Positions 1 through 14,520 of a stretch of 20,273 bases of DNA are shown here, piece after piece (position 1 is the first letter of the stretch; each line of letters begins with the position of its first letter). A program made the position numbers and the translations under genes. The notes below the pieces were generated by a model that saw nothing but the letters and a program-made list of their open reading frames with translations, made no database searches and had not been told where the DNA came from. The DNA is from a virus. The stretch lies in IMG/VR virus record IMGVR_UViG_3300033074_002003. The stretch is one strand, 5' to 3'.

Positions 1-41
1 TGTCTACTCGCCCAACGCCGGTTCGAATCCGGTCGTCATCG
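1..41 (+). tRNA. 3' portion of a tRNA gene truncated by the window start (T-arm and acceptor 3' strand only)
   Basis: GCCGG-TTCGAAT-CCGGT T-arm at 17-33, then a 7-nt acceptor 3' strand and discriminator. The 5' half lies outside the window. Confidence 0.5.
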
Positions 42-164
42 CAATCGAGCACCGAGAGGTGTGAGATCAGTTCCCCGCAAGGGAAACATTCGGGCCTGGT
101 GTATTGAGCAACACGCGTCCACTTTGGAGGACGAGAGCCACGAGCATAGCGTGGGGCCTGAGCC

Positions 165-236
165 GGGGAGGTAGTGTACGGGCGCACAGCGATCTATTGG
201 TGATCGACTGAGCTGGTTCAATTCCAGCCCTCCCCC
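165..236 (+). tRNA. tRNA-Gln(TTG)-like, 72 nt
   Basis: Acceptor GGGGAGG/CCTCCCC. T-arm GCTGG-TTCAATT-CCAGC. Anticodon stem CGATC/GATCG with loop TATTGGT, giving anticodon TTG. A33 is non-canonical and the D-loop is small. Confidence 0.5.
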
Positions 237-246
237 TGAATTATTT

Positions 247-318
247 GCACTGTTAGTGAAATGGGCATCACGTTTCTCTCTGAAAGAAAAATTGAAGGTT
301 CGAATCCTTCACAGTGTA
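247..318 (+). tRNA. tRNA-Gln(CTG), 72 nt, AT-rich
   Basis: Acceptor GCACTGT/ACAGTGT with one G-U pair. D-stem GTGA/TCAC. Anticodon stem TTTCT/AGAAA with loop CTCTGAA, giving CTG. T-arm GAAGG-TTCGAAT-CCTTC. The N-terminal extension of the track ORF 256..1080 overlaps this tRNA. Confidence 0.65.
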
Positions 319-360
319 CAATGTCTCGTTTCGAACCAATTATTCATCGTGACAACAATT

Positions 361-1080
361 TTGAAATGTGAATTGTGTGACGGTGATCACGAAGGGTTTT
401 ACGGGAGTGGAAGATTTTGCAGCAAAAAGTGTGCAAGGGCATTTTCAACACATAAATCGCGCAATGAAATCAACGAAAAAGTAAGTCAAACCCTTGTAGG
501 TAGAAGTCGTCGACTTCTACGTGCTGATGATAAACGCTTGCTGTTGAAAGTTGTCATTGATGAAAATCAGCTGCGCGAAGAAATCAAATTTGCTGTAAGC
601 TTTCGAAATCTAGCGCTAAGAATGAATTTGTCACTTAATCAAGTTCATAAAGTGAAAAAAACAGTTCAACGCTTGGGGCTTGATTATTCGCATTTTCGTT
701 TGGGACGAGCGCCTGAAAAAGTTCTTTGTCGCAGCAACAAACGAGGTGATTTGCGCGGAGCTCTCCTGAAATCAGAAAGAGAGTACAAGTGTGAAGAATG
801 TGGTCTCACGTCAAAATGGCAAGAAAAGAAGCTCACACTCCATGTCGATCACATTGACGGTGACAACGAGAATCACGAAGCGTCTAACTTAAGATTTCTT
901 TGTCCGAATTGTCATTCACAAACAGATACATTTTCGTGGAAGAACGTGCGACGCAAAAAGCTTCTTAAAAATGCGGGTTCGAGTCCCGCTCTCCCATCTG
1001 CCTGCTCGGCGCAGAGAGCTGTAGACACCTTGACAACAATGTGGTGTGACGTTCGAGAGAGATCGAAGACGGGGCTGTAA
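361..1080 (+). CDS. HNH homing endonuclease, probable TTG start; a paralog of the CDS at 9020..9622
   Basis: HNH motif HVDHIDGDNENHEASNLRFLCPNCH. The N-terminal KCELCDGDHEGFYGSGRFCSKKCARAFS matches MKCERCQVEHSGTYGSGRFCTVKCARSFS of the second copy, so the start is set at TTG 361, in frame with the listed ORF 256..1080. The gene is AT-rich in a GC-rich context. The C-terminal ~40 codons are GC-rich, read through a tRNA 3'-half remnant, and overlap tRNA-Ala, so the true C-terminus is uncertain. Confidence 0.6.
   Translation: MKCELCDGDHEGFYGSGRFCSKKCARAFSTHKSRNEINEKVSQTLVGRSRRLLRADDKRLLLKVVIDENQLREEIKFAVSFRNLALRMNLSLNQVHKVKKTVQRLGLDYSHFRLGRAPEKVLCRSNKRGDLRGALLKSEREYKCEECGLTSKWQEKKLTLHVDHIDGDNENHEASNLRFLCPNCHSQTDTFSWKNVRRKKLLKNAGSSPALPSACSAQRAVDTLTTMWCDVRERSKTGL
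937..997 (+). pseudogene. tRNA 3'-half remnant embedded in the 3' end of the HNH ORF (T-arm GCGGG-TTCGAGT-CCCGC plus acceptor strand)
   Basis: Perfect T-arm at 973-989 followed by TCTCCCA. The only upstream acceptor partner, TGGAAGA, is about 60 nt away, which is too short for a full tRNA, and no D or anticodon arm can be formed. Confidence 0.4.
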
Positions 1081-1143
1081 CTCAATTGGGAGAGTGCTAG
1101 CTTTGCAAGCTAGAAGTTGCCGGATCATCCCCGGTCAGCTCCA
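1071..1143 (+). tRNA. tRNA-Ala(TGC), 73 nt
   Basis: Acceptor GGGGCTG/CAGCTCC with the G3:U70 Ala identity pair. D-stem ACTC/GAGT. Anticodon stem CTAGC/GCTAG with loop TTTGCAA. T-stem GCCGG/CCGGT, but the T-loop ATCATCC is non-canonical. Confidence 0.55.
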
Positions 1144-1162
1144 CAAGGTCGTGATCGAGTTT

Positions 1163-1235
1163 CGGGATATAGTGCAACCTGGTAGCACACGAGTTTTGGG
1201 TACTTGAAATTTCGGTTCAAATCCGAATATCCCGA
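1163..1235 (+). tRNA. tRNA-Pro(TGG), 73 nt
   Basis: Acceptor CGGGATA/TATCCCG. D-stem GTGC/GCAC. Anticodon stem CGAGT/ACTTG with loop TTTGGGT. T-arm TTCGG-TTCAAAT-CCGAA. Confidence 0.7.
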
Positions 1236-1408
1236 CTAGTGAGAGAGAAGTGGCTGTCGATAAGCTTGGGCAGCACGGGACGAGCGACCGAGCCCTGATC
1301 AAGGCAGTGGGACTACTCTTCGCCGACGGGCGGGTCTAAGCCACCGAGCGCGGATCTATCGCGGTGTGCACTTGCGCACGCTCTCTCCAGTTTTAAGGAA
1401 ATGGGAAG

Positions 1409-1615
1409 ATGCCGACAAGTCCTGAAGACATTGGCGGGTTCGGTGGAGCGAAGGAGTCAAGGAAGAGGGTCGCAGACATCGACTTCATACAGAGGTGTCG
1501 AAGCTCCTCAGAAGAGGAACTTCTGAAGATGTTCTTCGCTCACTGTCGCAAGGGAGCTCCAGAGTGGAAAAGGGTCGCGATCAAGCGGGCGCTGGCCCGG
1601 ATCGCGAGGGAATAA
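1409..1615 (+). CDS. hypothetical protein (68 aa)
   Basis: ATG preceded by AAGGAAATGGGAAG. GC-rich codon third positions. No recognisable motif. Confidence 0.4.
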   Translation: MPTSPEDIGGFGGAKESRKRVADIDFIQRCRSSSEEELLKMFFAHCRKGAPEWKRVAIKRALARIARE

Positions 1616-1616
1616 T

Positions 1617-1689
1617 CAGCGTGTAAGTCAGAAGCTAGACAGCATCCCTCGGAAGGATGAAGACGGGGGTGCAAGTCCCTCCACGCTGA
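1617..1689 (+). tRNA. tRNA-Pro(CGG)-like, 73 nt
   Basis: Acceptor CAGCGTG/CACGCTG is perfect. Anticodon stem CATCC/GGATG with loop CTCGGAA, giving CGG. T-stem GGGGG/CCCTC with an unusual T-loop TGCAAGT. The D-stem is only 3 bp. Confidence 0.5.
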
Positions 1690-1753
1690 CTGAGAGTGGA
1701 TGTGTGAACATCCCGAGTGCTGTGCCGTACAATCACTCATAAGGAGAAATGTG

Positions 1754-2353: not shown

Positions 2354-2361
2354 GTAAGATG

Positions 2362-2389
2362 TGTCGCGCTCTAGCGAGCGCGACAGTTT
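2362..2389 (+). terminator. rho-independent terminator-like hairpin (10-bp perfect GC-rich stem TGTCGCGCTC/GAGCGCGACA, loop TAGC, then GTTT)
   Basis: Seen directly in the sequence, 9 nt after the TAG stop of the 1754..2353 CDS. The T-tract is short, at 3 T. Confidence 0.45.
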
Positions 2390-2464
2390 GGGGATGTGGT
2401 CAAACGGCGAAGGCGTCTCCCTCAGAAGGAGAAGATTTTGTGGGTTCGAATCCCACCTTCCCCA
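2390..2464 (+). tRNA. atypical tRNA-like gene, anticodon CAG (Leu-type anticodon but short variable region), 75 nt
   Basis: T-arm GTGGG-TTCGAAT-CCCAC is perfect. Acceptor GGGGATG/CTTCCCC has one T:T mismatch. Discriminator A. Anticodon stem TCTCC/GGAGA with loop CTCAGAA. 3-bp D-stem with a 10-nt loop. The variable region is 7 nt. Confidence 0.4.
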
Positions 2465-2527
2465 CAGCGCACTGGGACCCGTAAAAAGCGAAAACAAGCG
2501 CAAAGAACGGGTTCCGGTGTGTCACAT

Positions 2528-2605: not shown

Positions 2606-2628
2606 CTAGTTACGAATGAGAGGGAACG

Positions 2629-2910: not shown

Positions 2911-2952
2911 GGGCACCCGGGATACAGACGCGGAGCGACTGAGTTCCGGGTC

Positions 2953-3141
2953 TTGACACACACACACGAGGTTACAATGGCTGAAAGTGGATACGAGCTG
3001 CGAGCGCGCATGCTCCAACTCTCTAAGGATATGCACTCGGAGCGCATGCACGCGCAAAATCCGAAAGTTCCGTACACGCTTGATGAAGTGCTGAAGGAAG
3101 CAGAGAGGCTCTACGCCTTTGTGCAGACAAAGACTCGGTGA
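2953..3141 (+). CDS. hypothetical protein (62 aa)
   Basis: GAGG 6 nt upstream of the ATG. Small basic protein. Confidence 0.4.
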   Translation: MTHTHEVTMAESGYELRARMLQLSKDMHSERMHAQNPKVPYTLDEVLKEAERLYAFVQTKTR

Positions 3142-3224
3142 CGAGATGACGTGAGCGTGAGTAGCTCGTTGCAGTTGACGGGCTAGCTCACGTCCGTATG
3201 AAGCAGGATAGAGAGGGTCGAGAC

Positions 3225-3536
3225 ATGGCACAGGTTCTTCACGTCACTGACGATGACATCGCGGACATTCGCCGGACGAGCAGGTCGCTGATCAAGTTCG
3301 GCGCGACGTGGTGCGGGCCCTGCAAGCTGATGGATCCGAAGTTCGAGGAGGTCGCGCTCGAGTGCACCTCACCCGCGAAGTTCTTCTCTGTCGACGTGGA
3401 CGAGTGCCCACAGCTCTCGAAGGTTTTCGGTATCAGGGGCGTCCCGACGATTGTGGTCGTCGAGGGAAATGACGAGGTCGCCCGCCTCGTGGGAAATGTC
3501 TCGAAGGAGAAGATCGTGGCGCTGTGCCGCGAGTGA
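3225..3536 (+). CDS. trx: thioredoxin
   Basis: Canonical WCGPC active site (FGATWCGPCKLMDP) and a thioredoxin-like length. Start set at the second ATG, 3225, after GAGAGGGTCGAGAC. The listed ORF starts at 3198. Confidence 0.7.
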   Translation: MAQVLHVTDDDIADIRRTSRSLIKFGATWCGPCKLMDPKFEEVALECTSPAKFFSVDVDECPQLSKVFGIRGVPTIVVVEGNDEVARLVGNVSKEKIVALCRE

Positions 3537-3538
3537 TT

Positions 3539-3610
3539 GCTGCGATGGTGTAGCTGGAAACACAGGGCTCTCGTAATGCCCAATCCCCGTTTCGAATACG
3601 GGTCGCAGCT
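3539..3610 (+). tRNA. tRNA-Thr(CGT), 72 nt
   Basis: Acceptor GCTGCGA/TCGCAGC. D-stem GTGT/ACAC with loop AGCTGGAA. Anticodon loop CTCGTAA. T-arm CCCGT-TTCGAAT-ACGGG. Confidence 0.65.
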
Positions 3611-3615
3611 CGAAT

Positions 3616-3688
3616 GCTATGTTAGCTCAGCTGGTAGAGCAGCTGTTTTGTAAACAGCAGGTCACCCGTTCGATCCGGGTACATAGCT
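3616..3688 (+). tRNA. tRNA-Thr(TGT), 73 nt
   Basis: Acceptor GCTATGT/ACATAGC. D-arm TAGCTCAGCTGGTAGAGC. Anticodon stem GCTGT/ACAGC with loop TTTGTAA. T-arm ACCCG-TTCGATC-CGGGT. Confidence 0.75.
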
Positions 3689-3689
3689 C

Positions 3690-3759
3690 CGGTGCGTGGT
3701 TTGGTCGACCTAGGTGGCCTTATGAGCACTGAAGGCAGGTTCGATTCCTGCCGTACCGA
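3690..3759 (+). tRNA. degenerate tRNA-like element (good acceptor and T-arm, no canonical D or anticodon arms), 70 nt
   Basis: Acceptor CGGTGCG/CGTACCG and T-arm GCAGG-TTCGATT-CCTGC are good. The central 38 nt (TGGTTTGGTCGACCTAGGTGGCCTTATGAGCACTGAAG) holds two nested palindromes, GGTCGACC and CCTAGG, but no 5-bp stem with a 7-nt loop. Confidence 0.3.
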
Positions 3760-3823
3760 CTGACACGACTTTCTTAACAGAGCTTGTTGACAGACGAATG
3801 CAAAATCTGTCAGTGGGGATAAA

Positions 3824-3894
3824 GCGCGCGTGGTGTAATGGTAGCACTTAAGAACGCCATTCTTAGGGTGAGGGTTCGAATCCCTCCGCGCGCT
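3824..3894 (+). tRNA. tRNA-Gly(GCC)-like, 71 nt
   Basis: Acceptor GCGCGCG/CGCGCGC. D-arm GTGTAATGGTAGCAC. Anticodon stem TAAGA/TCTTA with loop ACGCCAT, which has a non-canonical A32 and C33. T-arm GAGGG-TTCGAAT-CCCTC. Confidence 0.55.
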
Positions 3895-4009
3895 CAGGGG
3901 GCAAGTGTGAGAGCCCCTGCGAGCGATTAGATGCCGAAGCGATGTACTGGAAACGAGCGGGAGCGTCGTGACGGCGTAACCCCTCGCTGGTCGTCGCAAT
4001 CTCACAGAC

Positions 4010-4082
4010 GCGCGAGTAGCTCAACTGGTAGAGCGTCGGTTTTCCAAACCGAATGTTGCCCGTTCAAACCGGGTCTCGCGCA
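4010..4082 (+). tRNA. tRNA-Gly(TCC), 73 nt
   Basis: Acceptor GCGCGAG/CTCGCGC. D-arm TAGCTCAACTGGTAGAGC. Anticodon stem TCGGT/ACCGA with loop TTTCCAA. T-arm GCCCG-TTCAAAC-CGGGT. Confidence 0.75.
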
Positions 4083-4083
4083 C

Positions 4084-4165
4084 GCAAGTGTGGTGGAATG
4101 GCAGACACTGCGATCTCAAACATCGCTGTCCAGAGGACGTGAGGGTTCGAATCCCTCCTCTTGCA
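4084..4165 (+). tRNA. tRNA-Leu(CAA), type II, 82 nt
   Basis: Acceptor GCAAGTG/CTCTTGC has one mismatch. 3-bp D-stem. Anticodon stem GCGAT/ATCGC with loop CTCAAAC. Variable arm GTCC-AGA-GGAC. T-arm GAGGG-TTCGAAT-CCCTC. Discriminator A. Confidence 0.7.
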
Positions 4166-4169
4166 CTCT

Positions 4170-4219
4170 TGGGCGCCCAGGTGGGAACCACCACGGTCAC
4201 GAATTCGGGCGCCCGATTT
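4170..4219 (+). terminator. spacer hairpin: two copies of the palindromic octamer GGGCGCCC (4170-4177 and 4207-4214) can pair across a 29-nt loop, followed by GATTTT
   Basis: Seen directly. Sits between tRNA-Leu and tRNA-Asn. Could be a terminator or an RNA processing structure. Confidence 0.3.
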
Positions 4220-4292
4220 TGGGAGGTATCATAACTGGCAATGATGCGAACTGTTAATTCGTAGTATGCAGGTTCGAATCCTGCCCTCCCAG
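4220..4292 (+). tRNA. tRNA-Asn(GTT), 73 nt
   Basis: Acceptor TGGGAGG/CCTCCCA. D-stem TCAT/ATGA with loop AACTGGCA. Anticodon stem GCGAA/TTCGT with loop CTGTTAA. T-arm GCAGG-TTCGAAT-CCTGC. Confidence 0.75.
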
Positions 4293-4394
4293 CCCACTGT
4301 CCCGTGAAACGGACACCATCTTGCTCGTAGTTCGGTCAAACGGAAAGGGTTCACGTCTTGTTACGTAATGTTTCGTGTTGTGTAATATGTCTAC

Positions 4395-5048
4395 ATGGAC
4401 AACACGAAACGCTACATCTACTTCATTGTCAATCGCATAAACTCTAAACGATACGTTGGACAAACACGTGATTATGTAAAAAGATCTAAGCAACATTTTT
4501 CTGAGGGCAAGAAGGGTAGAAAACGACATCCACTCTACGATTCCATGTTTTCACACGGGATCGAAAATTTCGAATTTGTTGTGATACAAGAGTGTTGCGA
4601 AAATGACGTTGATGAGTGTGAGATAGCGTGGATTAAAGCATTGTGCACTCGTGATAGAAGATTTGGATACAATCTTACGCCGGGTGGTAGTGCAATGTCG
4701 AGTTGTGTCTATGAGAAAATTTCAAAATCAATGTCTGGTAGACATTTCACACCCGAACACAAGGCAAAAATAGCTCAAGCGTTGAGAGGACAAAAGAGAC
4801 CTCCTTTGAAAGTTGAGCACGTTGAAAAGATAAGAAAATTCAACTTAGAGTCGCCGCCCTTTGCGGGTAAAACTCATACTGTTGAAACGCGTGAGAAAAT
4901 ACGTTGCGCAAATTCCAAATTGACGCGTGAAATCGTGAAAGTGATTCGCGAAGAATTCAATAATGGAACATCTCGTAAAGAGCTTGCACAAAAATATCAG
5001 GTTTCGTATAGTGCAATCAAGAATATCGTTGCAGGTAGACGCTGGTGA
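4395..5048 (+). CDS. GIY-YIG homing endonuclease (I-TevI-like, with NUMOD-type repeats)
   Basis: N-terminal RYIYFIVNRINSKRYVGQT with the GIY-YIG signature, Arg (CTRDRRFGYN) and Glu. C-terminal repeated SGRHFTPEHKAKIAQA and GKTHTVETREKIR NUMOD3-like motifs and an HTH-like tail. AT-rich island directly after the tRNA array. Confidence 0.75.
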   Translation: MDNTKRYIYFIVNRINSKRYVGQTRDYVKRSKQHFSEGKKGRKRHPLYDSMFSHGIENFEFVVIQECCENDVDECEIAWIKALCTRDRRFGYNLTPGGSAMSSCVYEKISKSMSGRHFTPEHKAKIAQALRGQKRPPLKVEHVEKIRKFNLESPPFAGKTHTVETREKIRCANSKLTREIVKVIREEFNNGTSRKELAQKYQVSYSAIKNIVAGRRW

Positions 5049-5085
5049 ACAAGCGTCACCTCCGATGTAGCTATTCTAGGGTGCC

Positions 5086-5421
5086 ATGAGTTACTATTCG
5101 ACCGTCGAGCTCATTCGCATAATCGGAAGTGATCCGTTTGTGGCATGGGCGCGCAAGTGCGAAGAGTGTGGGGGTCGCCTCGTGCTGCGCAGGGACGTCG
5201 AGGTTCGCTACATGGAGCGCACGAAAGACTGCAAGGGCAAGTGGGTCTGGATCTCACACAGGGGCAACAAGCGCGGGAGGAAGCGAGTCCTCGAGAAGTG
5301 CTACCTGAAGCAGTGCGCGGCCTGCGGCGAGAGGACAGAGGACGCCTGGTGTATGATCAGGAACGCAGAAGCGAGCGATCACTACCGCACAGAACGGGAG
5401 GGTGCCGGCTATGAGTTTTAG
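5086..5421 (+). CDS. small zinc-ribbon protein, paralog 1 of 4 (two CxxC pairs)
   Basis: KCEECGGRLVLRR plus CAACGERTEDAWC. The ATGAGTT start is shared with the three downstream paralogs. GC-rich. Confidence 0.5.
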   Translation: MSYYSTVELIRIIGSDPFVAWARKCEECGGRLVLRRDVEVRYMERTKDCKGKWVWISHRGNKRGRKRVLEKCYLKQCAACGERTEDAWCMIRNAEASDHYRTEREGAGYEF

Positions 5422-5638
5422 CGCAGCAGTCGCCGCGATGCGCGCTCGCGGGACACGCGTATTCTCGAGGAGGAAGTGCCCGAACTGTGGCTACACACTC
5501 AGGCTGCACCGCGAGTCTTTTTACGACGAAGACATTGGCTACTACGAGCGCAAGTGGAGCAAGCTCTGTGGCTGGTGCGCCAGTATGTACTGCGATGCGT
5601 CAACTGACGTCAGAAATTCATATGAGAAGAGAGTATGA
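5411..5638 (+). CDS. small zinc-ribbon protein, paralog 2 of 4
   Basis: MSFSAAVAAMRARGTRVFSRRKCPNCGYTLRL plus CGWCASMYC. Start set at the second ATG, 5411, after the strong SD GGGAGGGTG. The track ORF starts at 5402. Overlaps the paralog 1 stop. Confidence 0.5.
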   Translation: MSFSAAVAAMRARGTRVFSRRKCPNCGYTLRLHRESFYDEDIGYYERKWSKLCGWCASMYCDASTDVRNSYEKRV

Positions 5639-5898
5639 GTTTCAGGCGTATTGTTCAGATTTTGAGGGACTGGAAGACAACAATATACTCTCGACGTCGC
5701 TGTACTTGTGGCGGTCTGCTTATCTTGCGTCGCAACATCAGAGCGTTCAGAAATCGTAGCAAGGGTGTGAAACAAATCGACCGCACTTTTTACAAGCGGT
5801 GTACCCGATGCAAGCAGGCGTTCGCAGATCCACAAACAGTCGTCATGAACGCCGAAGACACCAGACGTCGTTACAAGACGGGTGAGAAAGTAGGATGA
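5635..5898 (+). CDS. small zinc-ribbon protein, paralog 3 of 4
   Basis: MSFRRIVQIL..SRRRCTCGGLLILRR plus CTRCKQ. ATGA overlap with the upstream stop. Lower GC than paralogs 1 and 2. Confidence 0.5.
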   Translation: MSFRRIVQILRDWKTTIYSRRRCTCGGLLILRRNIRAFRNRSKGVKQIDRTFYKRCTRCKQAFADPQTVVMNAEDTRRRYKTGEKVG

Positions 5899-6137
5899 GT
5901 TTCCAGAGTGTCGTGAAGCTAATGAAAACGTACGGCGAACGCACTTTCTCGAGGAGGAAGTGTCAAGACTGCGGCCACCGCCTCGTCCTCCGAAAGGGCA
6001 GAGCGGTGATAAGAGTACGGCACTCAAACGGCACGTGTCGCGTGAACCGCAGCTTCTACATCAAAATTTGCGAGGGGTGTAAGATCGATGAAACTGACAT
6101 TCAGGTTCGCCTATTGAACAACCCAAATCAGAAATAA
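5895..6137 (+). CDS. small zinc-ribbon protein, paralog 4 of 4
   Basis: MSFQSVVKLMKTYGERTFSRRKCQDCGHRLVLRKGR plus CEGCK. ATGA overlap with the upstream stop. Confidence 0.5.
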   Translation: MSFQSVVKLMKTYGERTFSRRKCQDCGHRLVLRKGRAVIRVRHSNGTCRVNRSFYIKICEGCKIDETDIQVRLLNNPNQK

Positions 6138-6138: not shown

Positions 6139-6211
6139 GCTGTCATAGCTCAGCTAGAAGAGCGCCACTTTGGTACAGTGGAGGCCGCCGGTGCGATTCC
6201 GGCTGACAGCT
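6139..6211 (+). tRNA. tRNA-Thr(GGT), 73 nt
   Basis: Acceptor GCTGTCA/TGACAGC. D-arm TAGCTCAGCTAGAAGAGC. Anticodon stem CCACT/AGTGG with loop TTGGTAC. T-stem GCCGG/CCGGC with loop TGCGATT. Confidence 0.65.
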
Positions 6212-6216
6212 CCAAT

Positions 6217-6296
6217 CCCGTCGTCGTCCAATGGAAGGGCACCGGTCTACGAAACCGGGCAGAGATGCAATGCAGGTTCGAGTCCTGCCGGCGGGG
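6217..6296 (+). tRNA. tRNA-Arg(ACG) with an unusually long (13-nt) variable region, 80 nt
   Basis: Acceptor CCCGTCG/CGGCGGG with one G-U pair. D-stem GTCC/GGGC. Anticodon stem CCGGT/ACCGG with loop CTACGAA. Extra GCA-GAGA-TGC mini-arm before the T-arm GCAGG-TTCGAGT-CCTGC. Confidence 0.5.
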
Positions 6297-6462
6297 CAAT
6301 AGGCGACAGTCGTCGTCCACACCGAAGACTATGACTCGGACGTGTGAGCCGCTCGGAAGCCCGTGCAGAGGGAAGAGAGCGGAAAGTGCCGAGGGCTGTC
6401 GCACTAGCTCGGAGCACCGAAGACAAGTGCTGTAAGTGGGTTGCTCCGCGATGCGGCACTCT

Positions 6463-6548
6463 GGAAGGTAAACCGGCTACGGAGCTGGGCCCGCCTCGAA
6501 AGCGGTGCGGGGCGGCAACGCCCTGGGGTTCGAGCCCTCTACCTTCCG
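6463..6548 (+). tRNA. tRNA-Ser(CGA), type II, 86 nt
   Basis: Acceptor GGAAGGT/ACCTTCC is perfect. Anticodon loop CTCGAAA. Variable arm GGGCG-GCAA-CGCCC. T-loop TTCGAGC. Overlaps the spurious N-terminal extension of track ORF 6505..6903. Confidence 0.6.
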
Positions 6549-6570
6549 CGGAGACGTCATACTTAACGGG

Positions 6571-6913: not shown

Positions 6914-7002
6914 GGAGGGCGTAGACCTGCGTGGTGCGGGCATTCGTTTGGAAAACGAATAGGTGCCGTGAGGTGCCTGCGGTTCGATTCCGCCGCCCTC
7001 CG
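6914..7002 (+). tRNA. tRNA-Ser(GGA), type II, 89 nt
   Basis: Acceptor GGAGGGC/GCCCTCC is perfect. Anticodon stem TTCGT/ACGAA with loop TTGGAAA. Long variable arm. T-loop TTCGATT. Discriminator G. Confidence 0.6.
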
Positions 7003-7042
7003 CTGCTGTGAACAACACAGTGACCCAGAGTAAAATTCTAGG

Positions 7043-7304: not shown

Positions 7305-7380
7305 GGTGGTGTTAGCCTAGTGGTTAGGGCACTCGAATGTGACTCGAGAAATTCGCACGGTTCGATTCCGGCACATCACC
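7305..7380 (+). tRNA. tRNA-His(GTG) with G-1, 76 nt
   Basis: Acceptor GTGGTGT/ACATCAC, preceded by G-1, which can pair with discriminator C. This is the His hallmark. D-stem GCCT/GGGC. Anticodon stem CTCGA/TCGAG with loop ATGTGAC. The T-loop TTCGATT is present but the T-stem is weak, at 3 bp. Confidence 0.6.
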
Positions 7381-7393
7381 CTATGTAGCTTAC

Positions 7394-8272
7394 ATGCTTA
7401 GAACGTGTGATTATTGTGACTTGACTGATGACTTTAATAGCGTTCAATCTTGGGCAGCACACCGTTCGAATTGTATAAAAAATCCCAATCGAACAGCGAA
7501 GCTGGCGAGAATGAGTGAATCGGCAGCCAAAGTTTCACGTAAAATCCTTGCTTTGACGTGTAGTTGTGGTTCGCTATTTTCCATAGAAGTCACAGACGCT
7601 GAAATTACGCGTGGTGCACATAGACACTTCTGTTCGCGGCAATGTGCAAATCGTCGTCAGCATTCGTCTGAAACCAAACAGAAAATTTCGCAAAGTGTTT
7701 CCAGATTTTTTCCCGAATCTATTTCTGTCGAAGTTGAATGTGCCGAGTGCAAGCGTAAATTCGTTGGTAAAACAGGAAGAACGTGTTGTTCACAACAGTG
7801 CGCTCGCGTAATCAATAATCGAAAAAGAATGATTGCAGCACAGTTGCCAGAAACTAGAGCAAAGATCGCAGCGAAGACTTTAGAGGCTTATGCTAACGGT
7901 CGCGAACAGTGTGGTGGGCGAACGAAATGGTTTGATGTTTACACGCTTCGATACGGCAAAATTCGTGTGCAAGGGACGTATGAAGTTCGAGCGTGTCAAA
8001 TTCTTGACAAGATGCTTGCTTCTGGAGAATTGATCGCGTGGGAATATACACGAGCTAGATTTCCTTATGTAGACACGTCTGGCAAACAACGTATGTACAG
8101 ACCGGATTTCAAGCTTGTTTATCCTACACACGAAGAATTTGTTGAAACGAAGGGATTTTCAACACCAAATGACGAACGCAAATGGGAAGCTCTTCGTTTG
8201 TTGGGTCATCATTTGTCAGTGTGGCGTGAAGCTGATCTCAAACAACGTGAATCTAAAGAGCATATGTCCTGA
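7394..8272 (+). CDS. putative free-standing nuclease with a PD-(D/E)xK / Vsr-like (DUF559-like) C-terminal domain and two N-terminal Cys-rich C..CAR modules
   Basis: The C-terminal YEVRACQILD..WEYTRARFPY..YRPDFKLVYPTHEEFVETKG matches the PD..(D/E)xK arrangement. HFCSRQCANRRQ and TCCSQQCARVINNRK resemble the GRFCSKKCARAFS module of the two HNH genes. AT-rich island between tRNA-His and downstream genes. Confidence 0.5.
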   Translation: MLRTCDYCDLTDDFNSVQSWAAHRSNCIKNPNRTAKLARMSESAAKVSRKILALTCSCGSLFSIEVTDAEITRGAHRHFCSRQCANRRQHSSETKQKISQSVSRFFPESISVEVECAECKRKFVGKTGRTCCSQQCARVINNRKRMIAAQLPETRAKIAAKTLEAYANGREQCGGRTKWFDVYTLRYGKIRVQGTYEVRACQILDKMLASGELIAWEYTRARFPYVDTSGKQRMYRPDFKLVYPTHEEFVETKGFSTPNDERKWEALRLLGHHLSVWREADLKQRESKEHMS

Positions 8273-8284: not shown

Positions 8285-8524
8285 ATGAACTGTTCGGTGG
8301 CGCTACGCAACACAATGGCAAACATCGCGCTCGATGCGTTCCCGTTCGCCACGGGCGCGTGGACAGACGGCGATCGCGTGGTCGTGTACGTTAGCGACGA
8401 CCACGACCTCACCGACCAGAGGTCAGGCGACGCGACGTTCAGGTTTCCGGAGTTCGACGGCGAGTCAGTGAGAGAAATTTCGAGGCCCGTCACCATCGAA
8501 TTCGTGAGACACTCGTTCACGTAG
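8285..8524 (+). CDS. hypothetical protein (79 aa)
   Basis: GAGAGGACACGACA precedes the ATG. High GC3. Confidence 0.45.
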   Translation: MNCSVALRNTMANIALDAFPFATGAWTDGDRVVVYVSDDHDLTDQRSGDATFRFPEFDGESVREISRPVTIEFVRHSFT

Positions 8525-8584
8525 CTTAATTGGTAAAGCACCGCATTTTGGCGGAGGCTGTGAGTTCGAATCTCATCGTGAACA
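8515..8584 (+). pseudogene. degenerate tRNA-like gene (70 nt) with a 4-bp anticodon stem and a 6-nt loop
   Basis: Acceptor GTTCACG/CGTGAAC is perfect. D-stem GCTT/AAGC. T-arm GTGAG-TTCGAAT-CTCAT. The anticodon arm is CCGC-ATTTTG-GCGG, which is 3 nt too short. Overlaps the stop of the 8285..8524 CDS. Confidence 0.35.
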
Positions 8585-8586
8585 CA

Positions 8587-8895: not shown

Positions 8896-8982
8896 GGGAG
8901 ATTAGTTCAGAGGAAGAACGCGTCCCCTACAAGGACGATGCCCTTAGGGTTTACACAGGTTCGAATCCTGTATCTCCTACCA
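8896..8982 (+). tRNA. orphan type-II tRNA with anticodon loop CCTACAA (TAC by standard numbering, C33) and an encoded 3' CCA; isotype uncertain
   Basis: Acceptor GGGAGAT/ATCTCCT. D-stem GTTC/GAAC. Anticodon stem CGTCC/GGACG is perfect. 17-nt variable arm GCCC-TTA-GGGT. T-arm ACAGG-TTCGAAT-CCTGT. Discriminator A, then CCA. Confidence 0.45.
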
Positions 8983-9019
8983 CACCTAGTGTTCACATAG
9001 TTCGATATAACTATCGTTC

Positions 9020-9622
9020 ATGAAATGTGAACGCTGTCAAGTTGAACACAGTGGGACGTATGGTTCGGGAAGATTTTGCACAGTCAAGTGTGCGAGATCT
9101 TTTTCAACAGCGTCTACTTCTGAAAAACGTTCAGAGATCAACAAACGAGTATCAGCGACACTAACGCAACCGCCAAAAGTAGCGACCTGTTGCATGTGTA
9201 ACACGCGGTATGAAACGCGACATCAGCGTTCTACATGTTGTAGTAAAGAGTGTCGAAAAGCTCGTAAAGCTCAAGTACAACACAACGTAACTAGAGAACA
9301 AAGAATCGAATTGGGCATCAAGAGTTCCTTTGGCAAATATGTTCGAAATCCGACAAGTTTGTATGATTTGAGCAACCGAACAATCAGTAAGATTCTTACA
9401 AGACTCGGAATCGGGTGTTCTTTGTGTGGTTGGTCTGCTGGAAAGTGTGACATTCATCACATTCGTGGTCGGAAAATTGAAGAAGCAGACAGACACGAAA
9501 ATTTGGCCTACGTGTGTCCAAATTGTCACAGGCTGATTCACAACAAGAAAATCAAGATTGACAGTCTTGTATCACTTCAAGATCAGATTGGTGATCGCTG
9601 GAAAGAGCTCTATTACGGTTAA
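9020..9622 (+). CDS. HNH homing endonuclease, a paralog of 361..1080
   Basis: N-terminal MKCERCQVEHSGTYGSGRFCTVKCARSFS. HNH motif CDIHHIRGRKIEEADRHENLAYVCPNCHRLIHN. AT-rich. Confidence 0.75.
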   Translation: MKCERCQVEHSGTYGSGRFCTVKCARSFSTASTSEKRSEINKRVSATLTQPPKVATCCMCNTRYETRHQRSTCCSKECRKARKAQVQHNVTREQRIELGIKSSFGKYVRNPTSLYDLSNRTISKILTRLGIGCSLCGWSAGKCDIHHIRGRKIEEADRHENLAYVCPNCHRLIHNKKIKIDSLVSLQDQIGDRWKELYYG

Positions 9623-9623
9623 G

Positions 9624-10013: not shown

Positions 10014-10020
10014 GAGAGCA

Positions 10021-10506
10021 ATGTCGTCGCTTCGCACCTTCGTGCAGATTCTCGTCGAGAGGGTGGGTGCTCCGCTACCAGACGAGGCGATTAGTGCGAT
10101 CGTGGGGGAGTACGCAGAGTCGCCGAAGCACCCTGAGATGCGACTCACGTGGAAGTGGGGCTCTGTTCACAGCGGCAGGCGCGTTCCCGGGTGGGGAGCG
10201 TACGTTCCCGACGATTTCGCGATTGTGATGAAGAGGTCGAGGGGAGCGAGCCCAGAAGATTTTGTCCTGACGCTCCTGCACGAGCTCGAACACTACAACC
10301 AGCACGTGAGAATGGCAGATGAGCTCCCGCAGGGCGCGACGAGGCAGGAGATCGTCGACGCATGGACAGAGTCGTACGGCGGGGCACTGAACACCTCGTC
10401 CTACGATGATAATATGTACGAGGTCTCAGCAGAGGCATTTGCACAGTCAGAGTTGGAGAACGCTCTGCAGATCGCTGGGATCACCCCGTCGTGGCCGAAT
10501 GGATAG
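10021..10506 (+). CDS. putative zinc metallopeptidase (HExxH)
   Basis: LTLLHELEHYNQH HExxH motif. Start set at ATG 10021, after AAGAGAGCA. Confidence 0.4.
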   Translation: MSSLRTFVQILVERVGAPLPDEAISAIVGEYAESPKHPEMRLTWKWGSVHSGRRVPGWGAYVPDDFAIVMKRSRGASPEDFVLTLLHELEHYNQHVRMADELPQGATRQEIVDAWTESYGGALNTSSYDDNMYEVSAEAFAQSELENALQIAGITPSWPNG

Positions 10507-10510
10507 GCAC

Positions 10511-10559
10511 CTCCCTCCGAAGGAGACTCACGCAGGTTCGAATCCTGCCGAAGGGGCCA
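10511..10559 (+). pseudogene. tRNA 3' fragment: short hairpin CTCC-GAA-GGAG, T-arm GCAGG-TTCGAAT-CCTGC, acceptor strand, discriminator and encoded CCA
   Basis: The T-arm is identical to that of tRNA-Asn at 4268-4284. No acceptor 5' partner lies within 90 nt upstream. Confidence 0.4.
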
Positions 10560-10570
10560 TAGTTACAAAT

Positions 10571-10657
10571 GGGAATCTAGCTCAAAGTCCGCGTCAGCGG
10601 GGGCAGAGCGGTCCGTTAGTAAGCGGACAGGTCCCGGTTCGAGCCCGGGGATTTCCT
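10571..10657 (+). tRNA. atypical 87-nt tRNA-like gene (perfect acceptor and T-arm, 8-nt anticodon-type loop TTAGTAAG, hairpin inserted in the D region)
   Basis: Acceptor GGGAATC/GATTTCC. T-arm CCCGG-TTCGAGC-CCGGG. Stem GTCCG/CGGAC closes an 8-nt loop. The D region GCTC...GAGC encloses an extra 5-bp hairpin, TCCGC-GTCA-GCGGG. Confidence 0.35.
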
Positions 10658-10661
10658 CAGA

Positions 10662-11195: not shown

Positions 11196-11221
11196 GACAA
11201 AGTGTAAGTATTGAACGACAC

Positions 11222-11309
11222 GAGAACGAATGGAAGCATACTCAAGAGGCTGACGAGATCCGACTGCTAATCGGATGTGTCCCATAAAGGCACCGCGGGT
11301 TCGAATCCC
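11222..11309 (+). tRNA. tRNA-Ser(GCT), type II, 88 nt
   Basis: Acceptor GGAAGCA/TGCTTCC is perfect. Anticodon stem TCCGA/TCGGA with loop CTGCTAA. Variable arm GTGTC-CCATAAA-GGCAC. T-arm GCGGG-TTCGAAT-CCCGC. Confidence 0.65.
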
Positions 11310-11364
11310 GCTGCTTCCGCAAATCTGAACACCACCCAGTAGAGCGGTATGATAGGACGGACAG

Positions 11365-11454
11365 TCACACTGTTGGAGGCGTGGTGGAGTGGTCGATCAC
11401 GTCCGTCTTGAAAACGGAAGATCGGTGATGAGCCGGTCCGGGGGTTCGAATCCC
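11365..11454 (+). tRNA. tRNA-Ser(TGA), type II, 90 nt
   Basis: Acceptor GGAGGCG/CGCCTCC is perfect. 3-bp D-stem with a long loop. Anticodon stem TCCGT/ACGGA with loop CTTGAAA. Variable arm CGGT-GATGA-GCCG. T-arm GGGGG-TTCGAAT-CCCTC. Confidence 0.7.
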
Positions 11455-11596
11455 TCCGCCTCCGCAAATTCTGTACAAACCGCTCTCAGTGAGCCATAAT
11501 GAGCATGACCTGAAAATTGTCGCCGAGAACCGAAGTTTTCGGTGTCACCCATCACACCGTGTGTTACAACAGTCACTCTTGGAGGAGTGATACGCA

Positions 11597-12283: not shown

Positions 12284-12600
12284 AGAAGAGGCAGCAGCAG
12301 TCGGGTCGTGGTCAGAGCAACGTGATCGAGTTCGAGCGTGTGGATGTCAATGACATCTGTTACGCCTCCGACGACGAGCTCTACCAGCTCTCGCACGAAC
12401 TTACTTCTGCCCGCGAGCGCGGGCGTGACCTCGATACCCGCGATGTGGAGATCGAGATCTGCTACGTGCAGCGCGAGAAGAAGATTCGCGCGGCTCGCAG
12501 GGAGGCTCACGAGCTGTACGTGCAGAACCTGCAGAACGAGAACGCCGCGCTGGGAAATGCGATGGCCCTCTCGCTCTCGCCCACCGAGGTGGCGAACTGA
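12280..12600 (+). CDS. hypothetical protein (106 aa)
   Basis: ATGA overlap with the upstream stop. High GC3. Coiled-coil-like. Confidence 0.5.
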   Translation: MKKRQQQSGRGQSNVIEFERVDVNDICYASDDELYQLSHELTSARERGRDLDTRDVEIEICYVQREKKIRAARREAHELYVQNLQNENAALGNAMALSLSPTEVAN

Positions 12601-13466
12601 TGACACACGTCAGGTCTTCGAAAAAGGGAGGACGCGGAAGGGTCGGAAAGAGCTCACTTCAGTGGGAGCAGGCAAAGAGGAAGTCGATTTCTTCGCTGGA
12701 GTGTGACACAGTGTCCTGGATGATGTCCAAGGCGGGCAAGATCCCGCTCCTCACTCACGACGAGAGCACCGAGCTTTTCAAGAAGCTCGAGGCGGGCGAC
12801 ACGCGCGTCCGCGAGAAGATCGTGAGCTCCAACCTGAAGCTCGTGATCTCCATCGCGAAGAAGTACAAGAAGCACACCGGCGTCGACTTCGAGGACCTCC
12901 TGCAGGAGGGCAACATCGGCCTCATGAAGGCGGTCGAGAAGTTCGATCACCGCCGCGGCTTCAGGTTCTCCACCTACGCGACGTGGTGGATCCGGCAGGC
13001 AGTCGGTCAGTTCGTCGCGAAGACGAGCCGGACGATCAGGCTTCCCGCACACGCGATCGGCGTCTCGCGCAAGATCGAGGACGTGAAGCGCGAGTACAGG
13101 GAGAAGTTCGGTGAGGAGCCCACCGAGGCGGACCTCTCTGAGATGATGGACGTCTCCGAGAGCATCATCAAGGCCGCTTCTCGAGGTGCCAGGCGGACGA
13201 TCTCGCTGTCCTCGCCCATCGATCGAGACTCTGACGGCGGAGACACCCTCGCGGACACGATCCCCGACACCTCTGCGGGTAGTAACCCGTTCGAGGCCTT
13301 CCTCGAGAAGGAGTCGTACCAGATCGTGAAGGAGTCGTTCGCGAAGCTCACTCCGAAAGAGGAACAGATCATCAGGCTCAGGTTCGGAATCTCTGATTCT
13401 ACGCCCGAGATGGAGATCAGCGAAGCCGAGGAGGAGGAGATCGCGCGGGCAGGAGGAGCACAGTGA
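12600..13466 (+). CDS. sigma-70 family RNA polymerase sigma factor (regions 2, 3 and 4.1 present; region 4.2 HTH absent)
   Basis: NLKLVISIAKKYKKHTGVDFEDLLQEGNIGLMKAVEKFDHRRGFRFSTYATWWIRQAV...RTIRLP is a near-consensus sigma-70 region 2.1-2.4. LTPKEEQIIRLRFGI is region 4.1. The ORF ends 24 aa later without the recognition HTH. TGATG overlap with the upstream gene. Confidence 0.8.
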   Translation: MTHVRSSKKGGRGRVGKSSLQWEQAKRKSISSLECDTVSWMMSKAGKIPLLTHDESTELFKKLEAGDTRVREKIVSSNLKLVISIAKKYKKHTGVDFEDLLQEGNIGLMKAVEKFDHRRGFRFSTYATWWIRQAVGQFVAKTSRTIRLPAHAIGVSRKIEDVKREYREKFGEEPTEADLSEMMDVSESIIKAASRGARRTISLSSPIDRDSDGGDTLADTIPDTSAGSNPFEAFLEKESYQIVKESFAKLTPKEEQIIRLRFGISDSTPEMEISEAEEEEIARAGGAQ

Positions 13467-13639
13467 AAGCCACGTACTGGTTCGTCTTCGATCGAAGGAA
13501 GCAATTCACCGAGTACGAGGCGTCGTTCCTCGACCGAGCGGAGGCTGACACCTACGCGAGCGACAAGCTCGGCGAGTTCGCGCACGTCACTCAGGACCTG
13601 AAAAATACGCTAGTCGTGCTGAAAGCGGGAGGACGATAG
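13463..13639 (+). CDS. unlisted small ORF (58 aa), GTG start overlapping the sigma stop (GTGA), preceded by AGGAGGAG
   Basis: Hand translation: VKATYWFVFDRRKQFTEYEASFLDRAEADTYASDKLGEFAHVTQDLKNTLVVLKAGGR. GC-rich third positions. Strong SD. The stop TAG lies 1 nt before the next ATG. Confidence 0.35.
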   Translation: MKATYWFVFDRRKQFTEYEASFLDRAEADTYASDKLGEFAHVTQDLKNTLVVLKAGGR

Positions 13640-13640
13640 G

Positions 13641-13919
13641 ATGGCAATGCCCTTGGGGAAGAAAATCAGCGGTGGGTACGCCACCGTGAAGGACGGCGGC
13701 GACTACCGCAAGATCGCCGAGGAGCTCACGCGCCGCGGGTTCAAGATGAATCACAGCAGCGCACGGAACAAGTTCCTCGCCGCGATGAAGAGCATCGCCG
13801 AAGACATCCTCCGGGCGGGCGGCAAGTCTCCCACGGACGAGGAGGTGTCTGAGCTCGCGAAGTCTCCCATGTTCCAGTCAGCGATCCACGACATGTACGA
13901 ACGTCACCTCGCTGAGTAA
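13641..13919 (+). CDS. hypothetical small protein with an HTH-like segment (92 aa)
   Basis: SD GGGAGGA 6 nt upstream. YRKIAEELTRRGFKMNHSSARNKFLAAMKSI has a helix-turn-helix pattern. Confidence 0.45.
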   Translation: MAMPLGKKISGGYATVKDGGDYRKIAEELTRRGFKMNHSSARNKFLAAMKSIAEDILRAGGKSPTDEEVSELAKSPMFQSAIHDMYERHLAE

Positions 13920-13963
13920 GCTCTCTCCTGTGAGAATACTTATCCTCGTCTACACGCGGGACG

Positions 13964-14125
13964 ATGATGAATACCTCACAGGATAGTGCTGAGTCTGCCG
14001 AGCGCGAGGCTCTCGAAGAATTGCTGAAGAAGAAGCCTGGCAGACCGAAGAAGAAGCAACCGAGGCACGGGGCCACATCGTGGCGTCACTGGCTCGAGAG
14101 CGATGAAGGAGTAGATTCCCAATGA
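13964..14125 (+). CDS. unlisted small ORF (53 aa) with a GRPKKK AT-hook-like motif; ATGA overlap with the next gene
   Basis: Hand translation: MMNTSQDSAESAEREALEELLKKKPGRPKKKQPRHGATSWRHWLESDEGVDSQ. Ends TGA at 14123-14125, overlapping ATG 14122. Confidence 0.3.
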   Translation: MMNTSQDSAESAEREALEELLKKKPGRPKKKQPRHGATSWRHWLESDEGVDSQ

Positions 14126-14469
14126 AGCCGTACAGTCGCAAGCCCACAGTGTGGGATCTGATCCAACGTCGCGGGGTGTCGCTCGCGGAGTGGGATCGTC
14201 ACTTCGGTGTCGCCTCGTACGCTGCACACGCGGCGCAGTGCGCTGTCGTTGGCGTCGAGCCGGCGACCGAGAGCGAATGGCTCGCGTCGAGGCCCGCACC
14301 GCCCGTGCAGGAGGTGTCCCAGCCCGAGAAGAAGCCCGAACTGCTCGTCTTTGTGCCGCTCGAGGAGCCGCGCGAGGTTGTGGCAGAGCCCGCCTCGCGC
14401 AAGGGCAAGGGCCGCAAGAGAGAAACAGATGTGACGACCGAGGGTGATGACGTGGTGCCGGAACGGTAA
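14122..14469 (+). CDS. hypothetical protein (115 aa)
   Basis: High GC3. The 3' end overlaps the start of tRNA-Cys by about 20 nt. Confidence 0.45.
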   Translation: MKPYSRKPTVWDLIQRRGVSLAEWDRHFGVASYAAHAAQCAVVGVEPATESEWLASRPAPPVQEVSQPEKKPELLVFVPLEEPREVVAEPASRKGKGRKRETDVTTEGDDVVPER

Positions 14470-14520
14470 CGGCTGCGTCTGCAAAACGCATGTGTGTGGG
14501 TTCGAATCCCGCCCACGTCT
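14449..14520 (+). tRNA. tRNA-Cys(GCA), 72 nt
   Basis: Acceptor GACGTGG/CCACGTC is perfect. D-stem GCCG/CGGC. Anticodon stem TGCGT/ACGCA with loop CTGCAAA. T-arm GTGGG-TTCGAAT-CCCGC with one G-U pair. Confidence 0.65.

Follow-up and report, generated by a model that had tools for sequence, protein, structure and literature searches.

The tRNA array

The window analysed here, a stretch of 20,273 nucleotides (nt) of viral DNA from the IMG/VR record IMGVR_UViG_3300033074_002003, contains a long array of tRNA genes interspersed with open reading frames (ORFs). ARAGORN detects 26 tRNA genes in it, between positions 90 and 14521 and on the + strand throughout, which is also the strand of the endonuclease and sigma-factor genes and of the gene remnants described below. 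The Rfam tRNA model recovers 22 of these at its gathering score (E = 2e-4 to 3e-13), and with laxer filters three more find support: tRNA-Ser(CGA) and tRNA-Ser(GGA), which match tRNA-Sec, a model of the same clan as tRNA, at 39-44 bits, and an element at 10571-10657 that matches the tRNA model at 38 bits. This brings the supported calls to 25 of the 26, and the matches are far above the chance level.

Exact-protein look-ups show the window to be part of a metagenomic population found in several JGI, ENA and Logan assemblies, with contigs of up to 58 kb that are 94-100% identical to it; look-ups with the ORFs at 1700-2353 and 3198-3536 gave no match. In these sister contigs the array reaches about 1 kb further upstream than the window and opens with genes for Lys(CUU), Ile(GAU), a 73-nt gene with the anticodon GCU, and Asp(GUC). 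The 3' part of the last of these is still present at positions 1-42, where the window edge truncates it, and equals the last 42 nt of the Asp(GUC) gene of a sister contig (L039:6521-6593). The final gene of the array is tRNA-Cys(GCA) (14449-14521), and no further tRNA genes are found in about 5.5 kb upstream or about 11 kb downstream. The whole array thus extends over about 15 kb, with about 30 tRNA or tRNA-like genes for 15 amino acids; on contig L040, which carries it in full, ARAGORN makes 29 calls in 15.0 kb, i.e. about two per kb.

Three of the 26 genes (90-164, 8515-8585 and 10571-10657) have an anticodon loop that is not of 7 nt. The remaining 23 fold as canonical cloverleaves in which the D and T loops are conserved and the anticodon loop has 7 nt, apart from deviations at individual bases, namely A33 in Gln(UUG), C33 in Leu(GAG), Gly(GCC) and Val(UAC), and G55 in Pro(CGG) and Thr(GGU). 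Apart from the two serine genes mentioned above, each of the 23 is called by ARAGORN and matched by the Rfam tRNA model. They begin with Gln(UUG) (165-236; Rfam 36 bits), Gln(CUG) (247-319), Ala(UGC) (1071-1144), which has a G3:U70 pair and the unusual T loop AUCAUCC, Pro(UGG) (1163-1236) and Pro(CGG) (1617-1690), whose T loop UGCAAGU is likewise unusual. These are followed by Leu(CAG) (2390-2465), Leu(GAG) (2528-2606), Thr(CGU) (3539-3611), Thr(UGU) (3616-3690), Gly(GCC) (3824-3895), Gly(UCC) (4010-4083), Leu(CAA) (4084-4166) and Asn(GUU) (4219-4296). Further on lie Thr(GGU) (6139-6214), with an encoded CCA and another unusual T loop, UGCGAUU; Arg(ACG) (6217-6297), with an enlarged variable region; Ser(CGA) (6463-6549; tRNA-Sec model 39.4 bits, E=6e-5, below gathering); Ser(GGA) (6914-7003; tRNA-Sec model 43.5 bits, E=5e-6); and His(GUG) (7306-7381), with an encoded G-1 and C73. 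Val(UAC) (8896-8982), Arg(CCG) (10485-10559, CCA encoded), Ser(GCU) (11232-11320), Ser(UGA) (11375-11465) and the cysteine gene complete the set. The two serine genes were considered as selenocysteine tRNAs, an identity ruled out by their anticodons and the sub-cut-off Rfam score.

The original prediction, which had been made by manual folding of the sequence, listed 21 tRNA species, and ARAGORN recovers all 21 with identical anticodons: Gln UUG and CUG, Ala UGC, Pro UGG and CGG, Thr CGU, UGU and GGU, Gly GCC and UCC, Leu CAA, CAG and GAG, Asn GUU, Arg ACG, Ser CGA, GGA, GCU and UGA, His GUG and Cys GCA. Its statement that the genes are co-oriented is borne out by 26 of 26, and its four clusters dissolve into about nine small groups with ORFs between them. 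It had overlooked Val(UAC), Arg(CCG), the aberrant tRNA-like genes at 8515-8585 and 10571-10657, the doubtful element at 90-164, the Asp(GUC) fragment at the window edge and a decayed tRNA-Ile(UAU) at 3690-3760.

Conserved gene order and codon usage

Relatives in the lineage have proteins that are 50-70% identical to those of the window population. Two of them, with 50-60% identity, were available for comparison. Both keep the gene order Lys, Ile, ..., Asp, Gln, Gln, Pro, Pro, Leu, Leu, Thr, Thr, (Ile), and, continuing, Gly, Gly, Asn, ..., Arg, His, Val, Arg, Ser, Ser, sigma factor, Cys, ligase. Hence, the array is an inherited feature of the lineage, and this comparison indicates that the island as a whole is vertically inherited. 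The G+C content at third codon positions (GC3) is 0.55 and 0.51 in the relatives versus 0.65-0.85 for most window ORFs, which confirms the high-GC coding bias noted in the original prediction.

Three changes are in step with GC3 in the comparison with the relative of GC3 0.55, referred to below as the lower-GC relative. Leu(CAG) at 2390-2465 corresponds to a Leu(UAG) ortholog (L099:14505-14580), to which it is identical at 61 of 76 nt, with compensatory changes in the anticodon stem. Ile(UAU) is intact in L062, where it stands after Thr(UGU) in the same position as the window copy at 3690-3760; the latter has kept the acceptor and T arms, its anticodon stem is broken, it does not fold into a cloverleaf, and it is recognised by an Rfam match (25.5 bits, E=0.13) together with the alignment to the L062 gene. 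AUA accounts for 20% of the Ile codons in the lower-GC relative as against 4% here. Finally, Lys(UUU) is present in that relative and absent here, AAA making up 45% versus 17% of the Lys codons.

We computed codon usage from 7634 codons of 52 non-endonuclease genes of the population and applied standard wobble rules. The tRNAs of the array read the top codon for 14 of the 15 amino acids covered, the exception being Val (GUC). Eight species have C34 anticodons, five of which fit the top codon of their family (AAG, CAG, CCG, ACG and UCG), with Leu(CAG), Leu(CAA) and Arg(CCG) lying off it. These observations, together with the changes that follow GC3, partly support the view that the tRNA set is tuned to the phage's own codon usage.

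The stronger version of the original prediction, according to which the array is a near-complete, self-sufficient translational complement whose C34 species evolved for a high-GC bias, fares less well. It can point to the full isoacceptor sets for Ser and Thr, of which ARAGORN indeed finds four (CGA, GGA, GCU, UGA) and three (CGU, UGU, GGU), respectively, to the five C34 species on top codons, and to the presence of CAG here where the lower-GC relative has Leu(UAG). Nevertheless, the whole array lacks tRNAs for Glu, Phe, Met (including the initiator), Trp and Tyr, which make up 18% of the codons, and it covers about 68% of all codons, leaving about 32% unread; hence, it gives no self-sufficiency. 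Moreover, the relatives at GC3 0.51-0.55 also carry Thr(CGU), Arg(CCG), Gln(CUG), Pro(CGG), Lys(CUU) and Ser(CGA), so that the C34 tRNAs are a lineage trait and no special adaptation to high GC. The accompanying premise that phage tRNA sets are usually small is not supported either: clusters of 15-37 tRNA genes, with 2-10 genes per kb and mostly 16 of 20 isotypes, have been described for 228 virus genomes (PMC6409571), and the number of tRNAs reaches 67 in huge phages (PMC7162821), so that arrays of the present size are ordinary. For the array, then, the self-sufficiency reading is largely refuted, and we give it little credence.

Homing endonucleases and the replacement of tRNA alleles

Four ORFs within the array stand out by their low GC content (40-43%, GC3 0.34-0.38), and each starts 12-98 nt 3' of a tRNA gene. 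The first (361-1080, GC3 0.38), here HNH-1, has an N-terminal FCS-type zinc finger and an HNH domain; its start codon is uncertain, and its frame reads through a remnant of a tRNA-Gln(CUG) gene. The second (4395-5048, GC3 0.37) lies 98 nt 3' of tRNA-Asn and combines GIY-YIG and NUMOD3 domains. The third (7394-8272, GC3 0.34) begins 12 nt after tRNA-His and contains repeated, zinc-finger-like C-S-x-x-C-A motifs. The fourth (9020-9622, GC3 0.36), HNH-2, is a paralog of HNH-1 (31% identity, E=5e-17). The HNH, GIY-YIG and NUMOD3 matches exceed the Pfam cut-offs, whereas the ORF at 7394-8272 is assigned to the endonucleases by matches to PHROG endonuclease families and by its composition.

The two HNH genes are variably present within the population: HNH-1 is absent from contigs L039, L042, L044 and L046, and HNH-2 from L034, L037, L038 and L039, although these contigs are otherwise 99-100% identical. 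No contigs lacking the GIY-YIG gene or the gene at 7394-8272 were found. The presence of an HNH gene goes in step with the allele of the adjacent tRNA gene, as seen by comparing window 241-998 with L039:6792-6873 and window 8896-9623 with L039:14502-14576. Where HNH-1 is present, it is preceded by a low-GC Gln(CUG) gene (247-319; 41% GC), and the 3' third of the resident Gln(CUG) gene survives as a 27-nt remnant (972-998; T arm plus acceptor strand, equal to the 3' end of L039:6801-6873) fused to the end of the HNH-1 reading frame. The Gln(CUG) gene of a relative is closer to this resident allele than to the cassette allele. Contigs without HNH-2 have a canonical Val(UAC) gene of 73 nt (L039:14502-14574); in those with HNH-2, this gene is replaced by the very different 87-nt allele at 8896-8982, which has C33, an insertion in the variable arm and an encoded CCA. 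These alignments show that each HNH cassette brought its own copy of a tRNA gene, Gln(CUG) in one case and Val(UAC) in the other, and overwrote the resident gene with the same anticodon. The HNH enzymes would act by cleavage and homing. Genomes with and without the cassettes coexist in a single population, an illustration of how a tRNA repertoire can be turned over by homing endonucleases.

In unrelated IMG/VR contigs, every homolog of HNH-1 is located within a tRNA array and beside tRNA genes, and one of them is flanked by two diverged Leu(GAG) genes. A peptide scan of IMG/VR yielded no relative of HNH-2. The site after tRNA-Asn is occupied in L062/the 209.7-kb relative by a different endonuclease with the same N-terminal zinc finger. 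As a separate observation, the 209.7-kb relative has a TnpB (OrfB) gene of the IS605 type inserted between Leu(GAG) and Thr(CGU) (L099:15394-16572).

These genes raise the possibility that the array is chiefly selfish cargo, i.e. that its tRNA genes are spread between co-infecting phages by endonuclease cassettes and recombination without each being of benefit. The close spacing of the four endonuclease genes downstream of tRNA genes, the link of two of them to foreign Gln(CUG) and Val(UAC) alleles, and the decayed Ile(UAU), the tRNA remnant and the aberrant genes in the array would all fit such a scenario, and tRNA genes of T4 are spread likewise by SegB (PMC2330249). Against it, the order and most isoacceptors are conserved at 50-70% protein identity, only two of about 30 genes are demonstrable cassette cargo, and the cloverleaves have been kept intact by compensatory changes, which points to purifying selection. 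We therefore regard selfish spread as an improbable account of the array as a whole.

Departures from the canonical anticodon arm

A canonical elongator tRNA has a 5-bp anticodon stem, a 7-nt loop, U33 and a purine at position 37, and U33 is nearly universal in tRNAs. Three of the genes detected here depart from this pattern in the architecture of the arm: 8515-8585 has a 4-bp stem with a 6-nt loop, 10571-10657 a tetraloop hairpin, and 90-164 an 8-nt loop. In 8515-8585 the anticodon arm is reduced to 14 nt with the loop AUUUUG, on a tRNA body that scores 60 bits with Rfam, and ARAGORN returns '???' for its identity; 11 contigs of the population carry this gene without any difference, and the relatives have no homolog of it. 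The element at 90-164, which abuts Gln(UUG), is called by ARAGORN alone and has no Rfam match at E<=5. Its minimum-energy fold is a cloverleaf (z = -1.6) with the anticodon loop ACUUUGGA, the non-canonical T loop AGCAUAG and a G3:U70 pair; its status as a tRNA gene is doubtful.

The four non-U33 genes that are otherwise good tRNAs differ in how far the change extends across the lineage. Gly(GCC) has C33 in the window and in both relatives, which suggests that the change is maintained. In contrast, the relatives do not share A33 in their orthologs of Gln(UUG) (that of L099 has U33) or C33 in those of Val(UAC). For Leu(GAG) the population has two alleles, the 79-nt allele of the window with C33 and, elsewhere, an 88-nt allele with U33. 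Altogether, non-U33 or otherwise odd anticodon loops are present in 9 of 62 distinct tRNAs of the lineage versus 2 of 78 in the unrelated viral arrays that we compared.

It has been proposed that anticodon-loop changes in phage tRNAs allow them to escape host tRNA nucleases (PMC10264068), and the odd loops seen here would fit this proposal. More broadly, the island might serve anti-defence: its tRNAs would stand in for host tRNAs lost to cleavage or depletion through anticodon nucleases, PARIS, retron or Septu systems or host shutdown, with the unusual anticodon loops conferring nuclease resistance and codon fit being secondary. There are precedents for such a role of phage tRNAs (PMC10264068, PMC11555353, PMC11464382, PMC13096335), and the excess of odd loops, the lineage-wide C33 of Gly(GCC) and the retention of C34 species and rare-codon tRNAs regardless of GC3 speak for it. 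On the other side, the position-33 changes that are not shared with the relatives, or by both alleles, could be drift or hitch-hiking, and the anticodon switch and gene decay that follow GC3 imply that codon demand also matters. We consider anti-defence possible but rather unlikely as the principal explanation; it is nonetheless compatible with an inherited, partly codon-tuned island and may even be the larger benefit of it.

Several further peculiarities were seen among the tRNA genes of the lineage. About 0.3 kb upstream of the window, the 73-nt GCU gene (L039:6230-6302) has no long variable arm, C33 (loop CCGCUAG) and a D loop without GG; the same place in the 209.7-kb relative is taken by a 'Gly(ACC)' gene and a gene with the 6-nt loop CGCAAG (L099:12086-12291). 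The Leu tRNAs with anticodons CAG, GAG and UAG (2390-2465, 2528-2606 and L099:14505-14580) have short variable arms and lengths of 76-79 nt; a long variable arm is typical of bacterial tRNA-Leu. The 3' half of the window allele of Leu(GAG) resembles the neighbouring Leu(CAG), which suggests gene conversion.

A conserved tRNA-shaped RNA without an anticodon

The element at 10571-10657 has homologs in two diverged relatives (L063:7941-8027 and L098:923-1013), and in each case it lies directly 3' of Arg(CCG). In a model-based alignment of the three sequences, 98.7% of the cells are paired and 14 of 26 pairs show compensatory double changes, a level of covariation reached by none of 500 shuffles; as the alignment was fitted to the model, these counts lean towards structure. 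Neither the G3:U70 pair nor the D stem varies within the family, whereas covariation is seen in the acceptor pairs next to G3:U70 and in an extra hairpin within the D loop (4, 4 and 7 bp). The T arm is normal. The position of the anticodon arm is taken by a closed hairpin that ends in a tetraloop and differs in length among the homologs. G3:U70 is the alanine identity element. Taken together, these features make the element a conserved tRNA-shaped RNA that bears the identity element for alanine but lacks an anticodon. Two pattern scans of IMG/VR and a covariance-model search revealed no further homologs.

Other interpretations of this element were examined and dropped. The homologs conserve the Infernal fold but not the one given by ARAGORN for 10571-10658, which has a 4-base anticodon 'agcg' and a long variable arm. 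A quadruplet anticodon in the loop was abandoned after the third homolog showed a 4-bp stem with a tetraloop. A transfer-messenger RNA (tmRNA) is excluded by the negative ARAGORN tmRNA search of the window and by the self-contained 87-nt cloverleaf.

Of all elements of the array, this is the one that may be new. We tentatively suggest, while holding this to be somewhat less probable than its opposite, that it represents an undescribed class of phage RNA, tRNA-shaped, with an alanine identity pair and without an anticodon. Being unable to decode, it would have a role outside normal decoding if it is charged by alanyl-tRNA synthetase: it might be an alanyl donor for a transferase, take part in the handling of stalled ribosomes, or be a mimic that titrates a tRNA-binding host factor or a defence sensor. 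Such a covarying, anticodon-less mimic of the alanine type makes a specific candidate for a phage 'tRNA gene' with a function outside decoding, and it bears on the current debate as to whether phage tRNAs serve codon supply or anti-defence.

The genome that carries the array

In a megablast search of the whole window against 50,697 phage records, the sole match is 55 nt of tRNA-Thr; hence, the phage has no close cultured relative. Searches with tblastn using the ligase, the sigma factor, UvdE and a 92-residue (aa) protein gave identities of <=30-44% or no match, the 92-aa protein having none in cultured phages, and the best protein identities to isolated phages are about 30-40%. The array is flanked by an AAA-ATPase gene on one side and a DNA-ligase gene on the other. 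Among and after the tRNA genes are genes for thioredoxin, a YspA-type SLOG protein, a sigma-70 family factor, an ATP-dependent DNA ligase, a histone-deacetylase-like protein and UvdE, along with many small same-strand ORFs without a family match. The sigma-70 family factor (12600-13466; Pfam regions 2 and 3, PHROG 351) lies within the array between Ser(UGA) and Cys, and has orthologs in relatives and in IMG/VR contigs. With the 92-aa protein, the ATP-dependent ligase and UvdE it forms a module (12600-13919, 15109-16452 and 19670-20272) that recurs in IMG/VR contigs L001-L012; these viral contigs are distant relatives (30-52% identity), and some of the contigs with the module measure 180-288 kb.

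In close-variant contigs a gene for a 5'-3' exonuclease is found about 6 kb upstream of the array; its 96%-identical homolog is on contigs of up to 306 kb, and a 71%-identical ortholog is on the 209.7-kb contig with the same gene order. Large contigs of the lineage measure 210-306 kb. A metagenome scan with the C1 peptidase encoded upstream returned a single unrelated contig of 1.7 kb, which did not extend the genome. From gene content and relatives, the source is very probably an uncultivated, GC-rich lineage of jumbo tailed phages with a very large genome.

A bacterial or plasmid 'tRNA array unit', of the kind found in mycobacteria or cyanobacteria, would also present many clustered tRNA genes, and no structural phage gene is seen in the reachable sequence of about 55 kb. 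Here, however, the tRNA genes are interleaved with homing endonucleases and small same-strand ORFs mostly without family match, the neighbouring module is shared with viral contigs of IMG/VR, and the ligase, exonuclease and sigma factor fall in PHROG families. Furthermore, no housekeeping, plasmid replication or conjugation genes were found in the ~55 kb. The chromosome or plasmid context by which bacterial tRNA array units and L-arrays are recognised is replaced by one of phage-like ORFs and homing endonucleases, and we judge a bacterial or plasmid origin very improbable.

Other features of the region are recorded here in their own right. A histone-deacetylase-family gene (16449-17321) adjoins the ligase, and its best matches, at 50-60% identity, are on short contigs of GC-rich metagenome-assembled genomes labelled Myxococcales, Chromatiaceae and Steroidobacteraceae; these matches are too weak to name a host, and the matching contigs may themselves be phage fragments. 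Four tandem paralogous small ORFs of 78-111 aa with paired CxxC zinc-ribbon motifs, which match no known family, occupy 5086-6137 between two groups of tRNA genes. A 282-bp segment (2930-3211) upstream of the thioredoxin gene varies within the population: some contigs have it, and others have 4 bp in its place. An unrelated 181-kb viral contig with a homologous sigma factor has a tRNA array that opens with a tmRNA gene and also contains a tRNA with the anticodon CUA, of the amber-suppressor type (L021:172-1952). A promoter scan found 16 promoter-like sites versus 6.2 expected, and a terminator scan none above chance; neither was used for any conclusion.

Interpretation of the island

Considering all of the above, we think it likely that the window contains most of a vertically inherited tRNA island of a jumbo phage, which is partly tuned to codon usage and has been remodelled by homing-endonuclease cassettes. 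During infection its tRNAs would be transcribed together with the surrounding genes, matured by the RNase P and CCA-adding enzyme of the host (at least three of the genes encode CCA), and charged by host synthetases. They would then keep up the translation of phage mRNAs by topping up the most-used tRNAs, and possibly also replace depleted or cleaved host tRNAs.

Several observations weigh against this interpretation. Glu(CUC) is present in a relative and absent here even though GAG makes up 6% of all codons, a loss that is unlike an optimisation of codon supply. Arg(CCG) and Leu(CAA) serve codons that are rare here (11% and 6% of their families, respectively), and several anticodon loops, namely those with A33 or C33 and those of 6 or 8 nt, may not decode normally. 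Codon supply and mirroring of host usage are not separable from phage data alone. Finally, Pfam and PHROG scans of the ~55 kb, including PHROG scans of the large upstream ORFs, show no capsid, portal, terminase or other structural gene, because of which the identification as a phage rests on gene content and relatives. For the codon-related part of the interpretation, direct comparative support comes from the anticodon switch, the decaying tRNA and the missing tRNA that distinguish sister lineages of different GC3 in step with codon usage.

Comparison with known systems

The tRNA-shaped RNA at 10571-10657 is comparable to the tRNA-like domain of tmRNA in that both have a conserved acceptor stem with G3:U70, a normal T arm and no anticodon. 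It differs from tmRNA in being a free-standing gene of about 87 nt with all four cloverleaf arms and an extra hairpin in the D loop, and in having no mRNA-like domain, tag reading frame or pseudoknots.

The anticodon-loop deviations, with the lineage-wide C33 of Gly(GCC), are reminiscent of the phage tRNAs for which nuclease escape was proposed. The cases described there are changes relative to known host tRNAs and nucleases (PMC10264068), whereas here the change at position 33 dominates.

The closest parallel to the cassettes is SegB of phage T4, a GIY-YIG homing endonuclease encoded in a tRNA cluster, which recognises a T-psi-C stem-loop motif and spreads the flanking tRNA genes (PMC2330249). 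As in T4, free-standing endonuclease genes lie within a phage tRNA cluster (PMC2330249; see also PMC13096335), are patchily present among related phages and are co-inherited with flanking tRNA genes; a further reminder of the T-psi-C target of SegB is that the HNH-1 cassette ends on its right-hand side immediately ahead of the T arm of the tRNA it destroyed. Unlike SegB, two of the four enzymes found here are HNH proteins with an FCS-type zinc finger, and each HNH cassette carries a diverged copy of the isoacceptor that it overwrote. On this evidence, the cassette-borne replacement of tRNAs appears to be a variant of SegB-type homing, and HNH cassettes with a spare tRNA copy may be a general route for the exchange of phage tRNA repertoires.

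The array as a whole resembles the tRNA clusters of large phages (PMC6409571, PMC7162821), with dozens of clustered genes in what is very probably a large viral genome. Having many bona fide genes at about 2 per kb, against the published range of roughly 2-10 per kb, it has the gene number and density of a viral tRNA cluster, and its 15 isotypes can be set beside those of the published clusters (PMC6409571). Its tRNA sequences are unlike any in the phage collection searched by megablast. As a tRNA array it is therefore a further well-documented example, from an unsampled lineage of jumbo phages, which leaves the general knowledge of phage tRNAs unchanged. What sets it apart from the known large-phage clusters is its new lineage without a cultured relative and its unusually high share of non-canonical anticodon loops.

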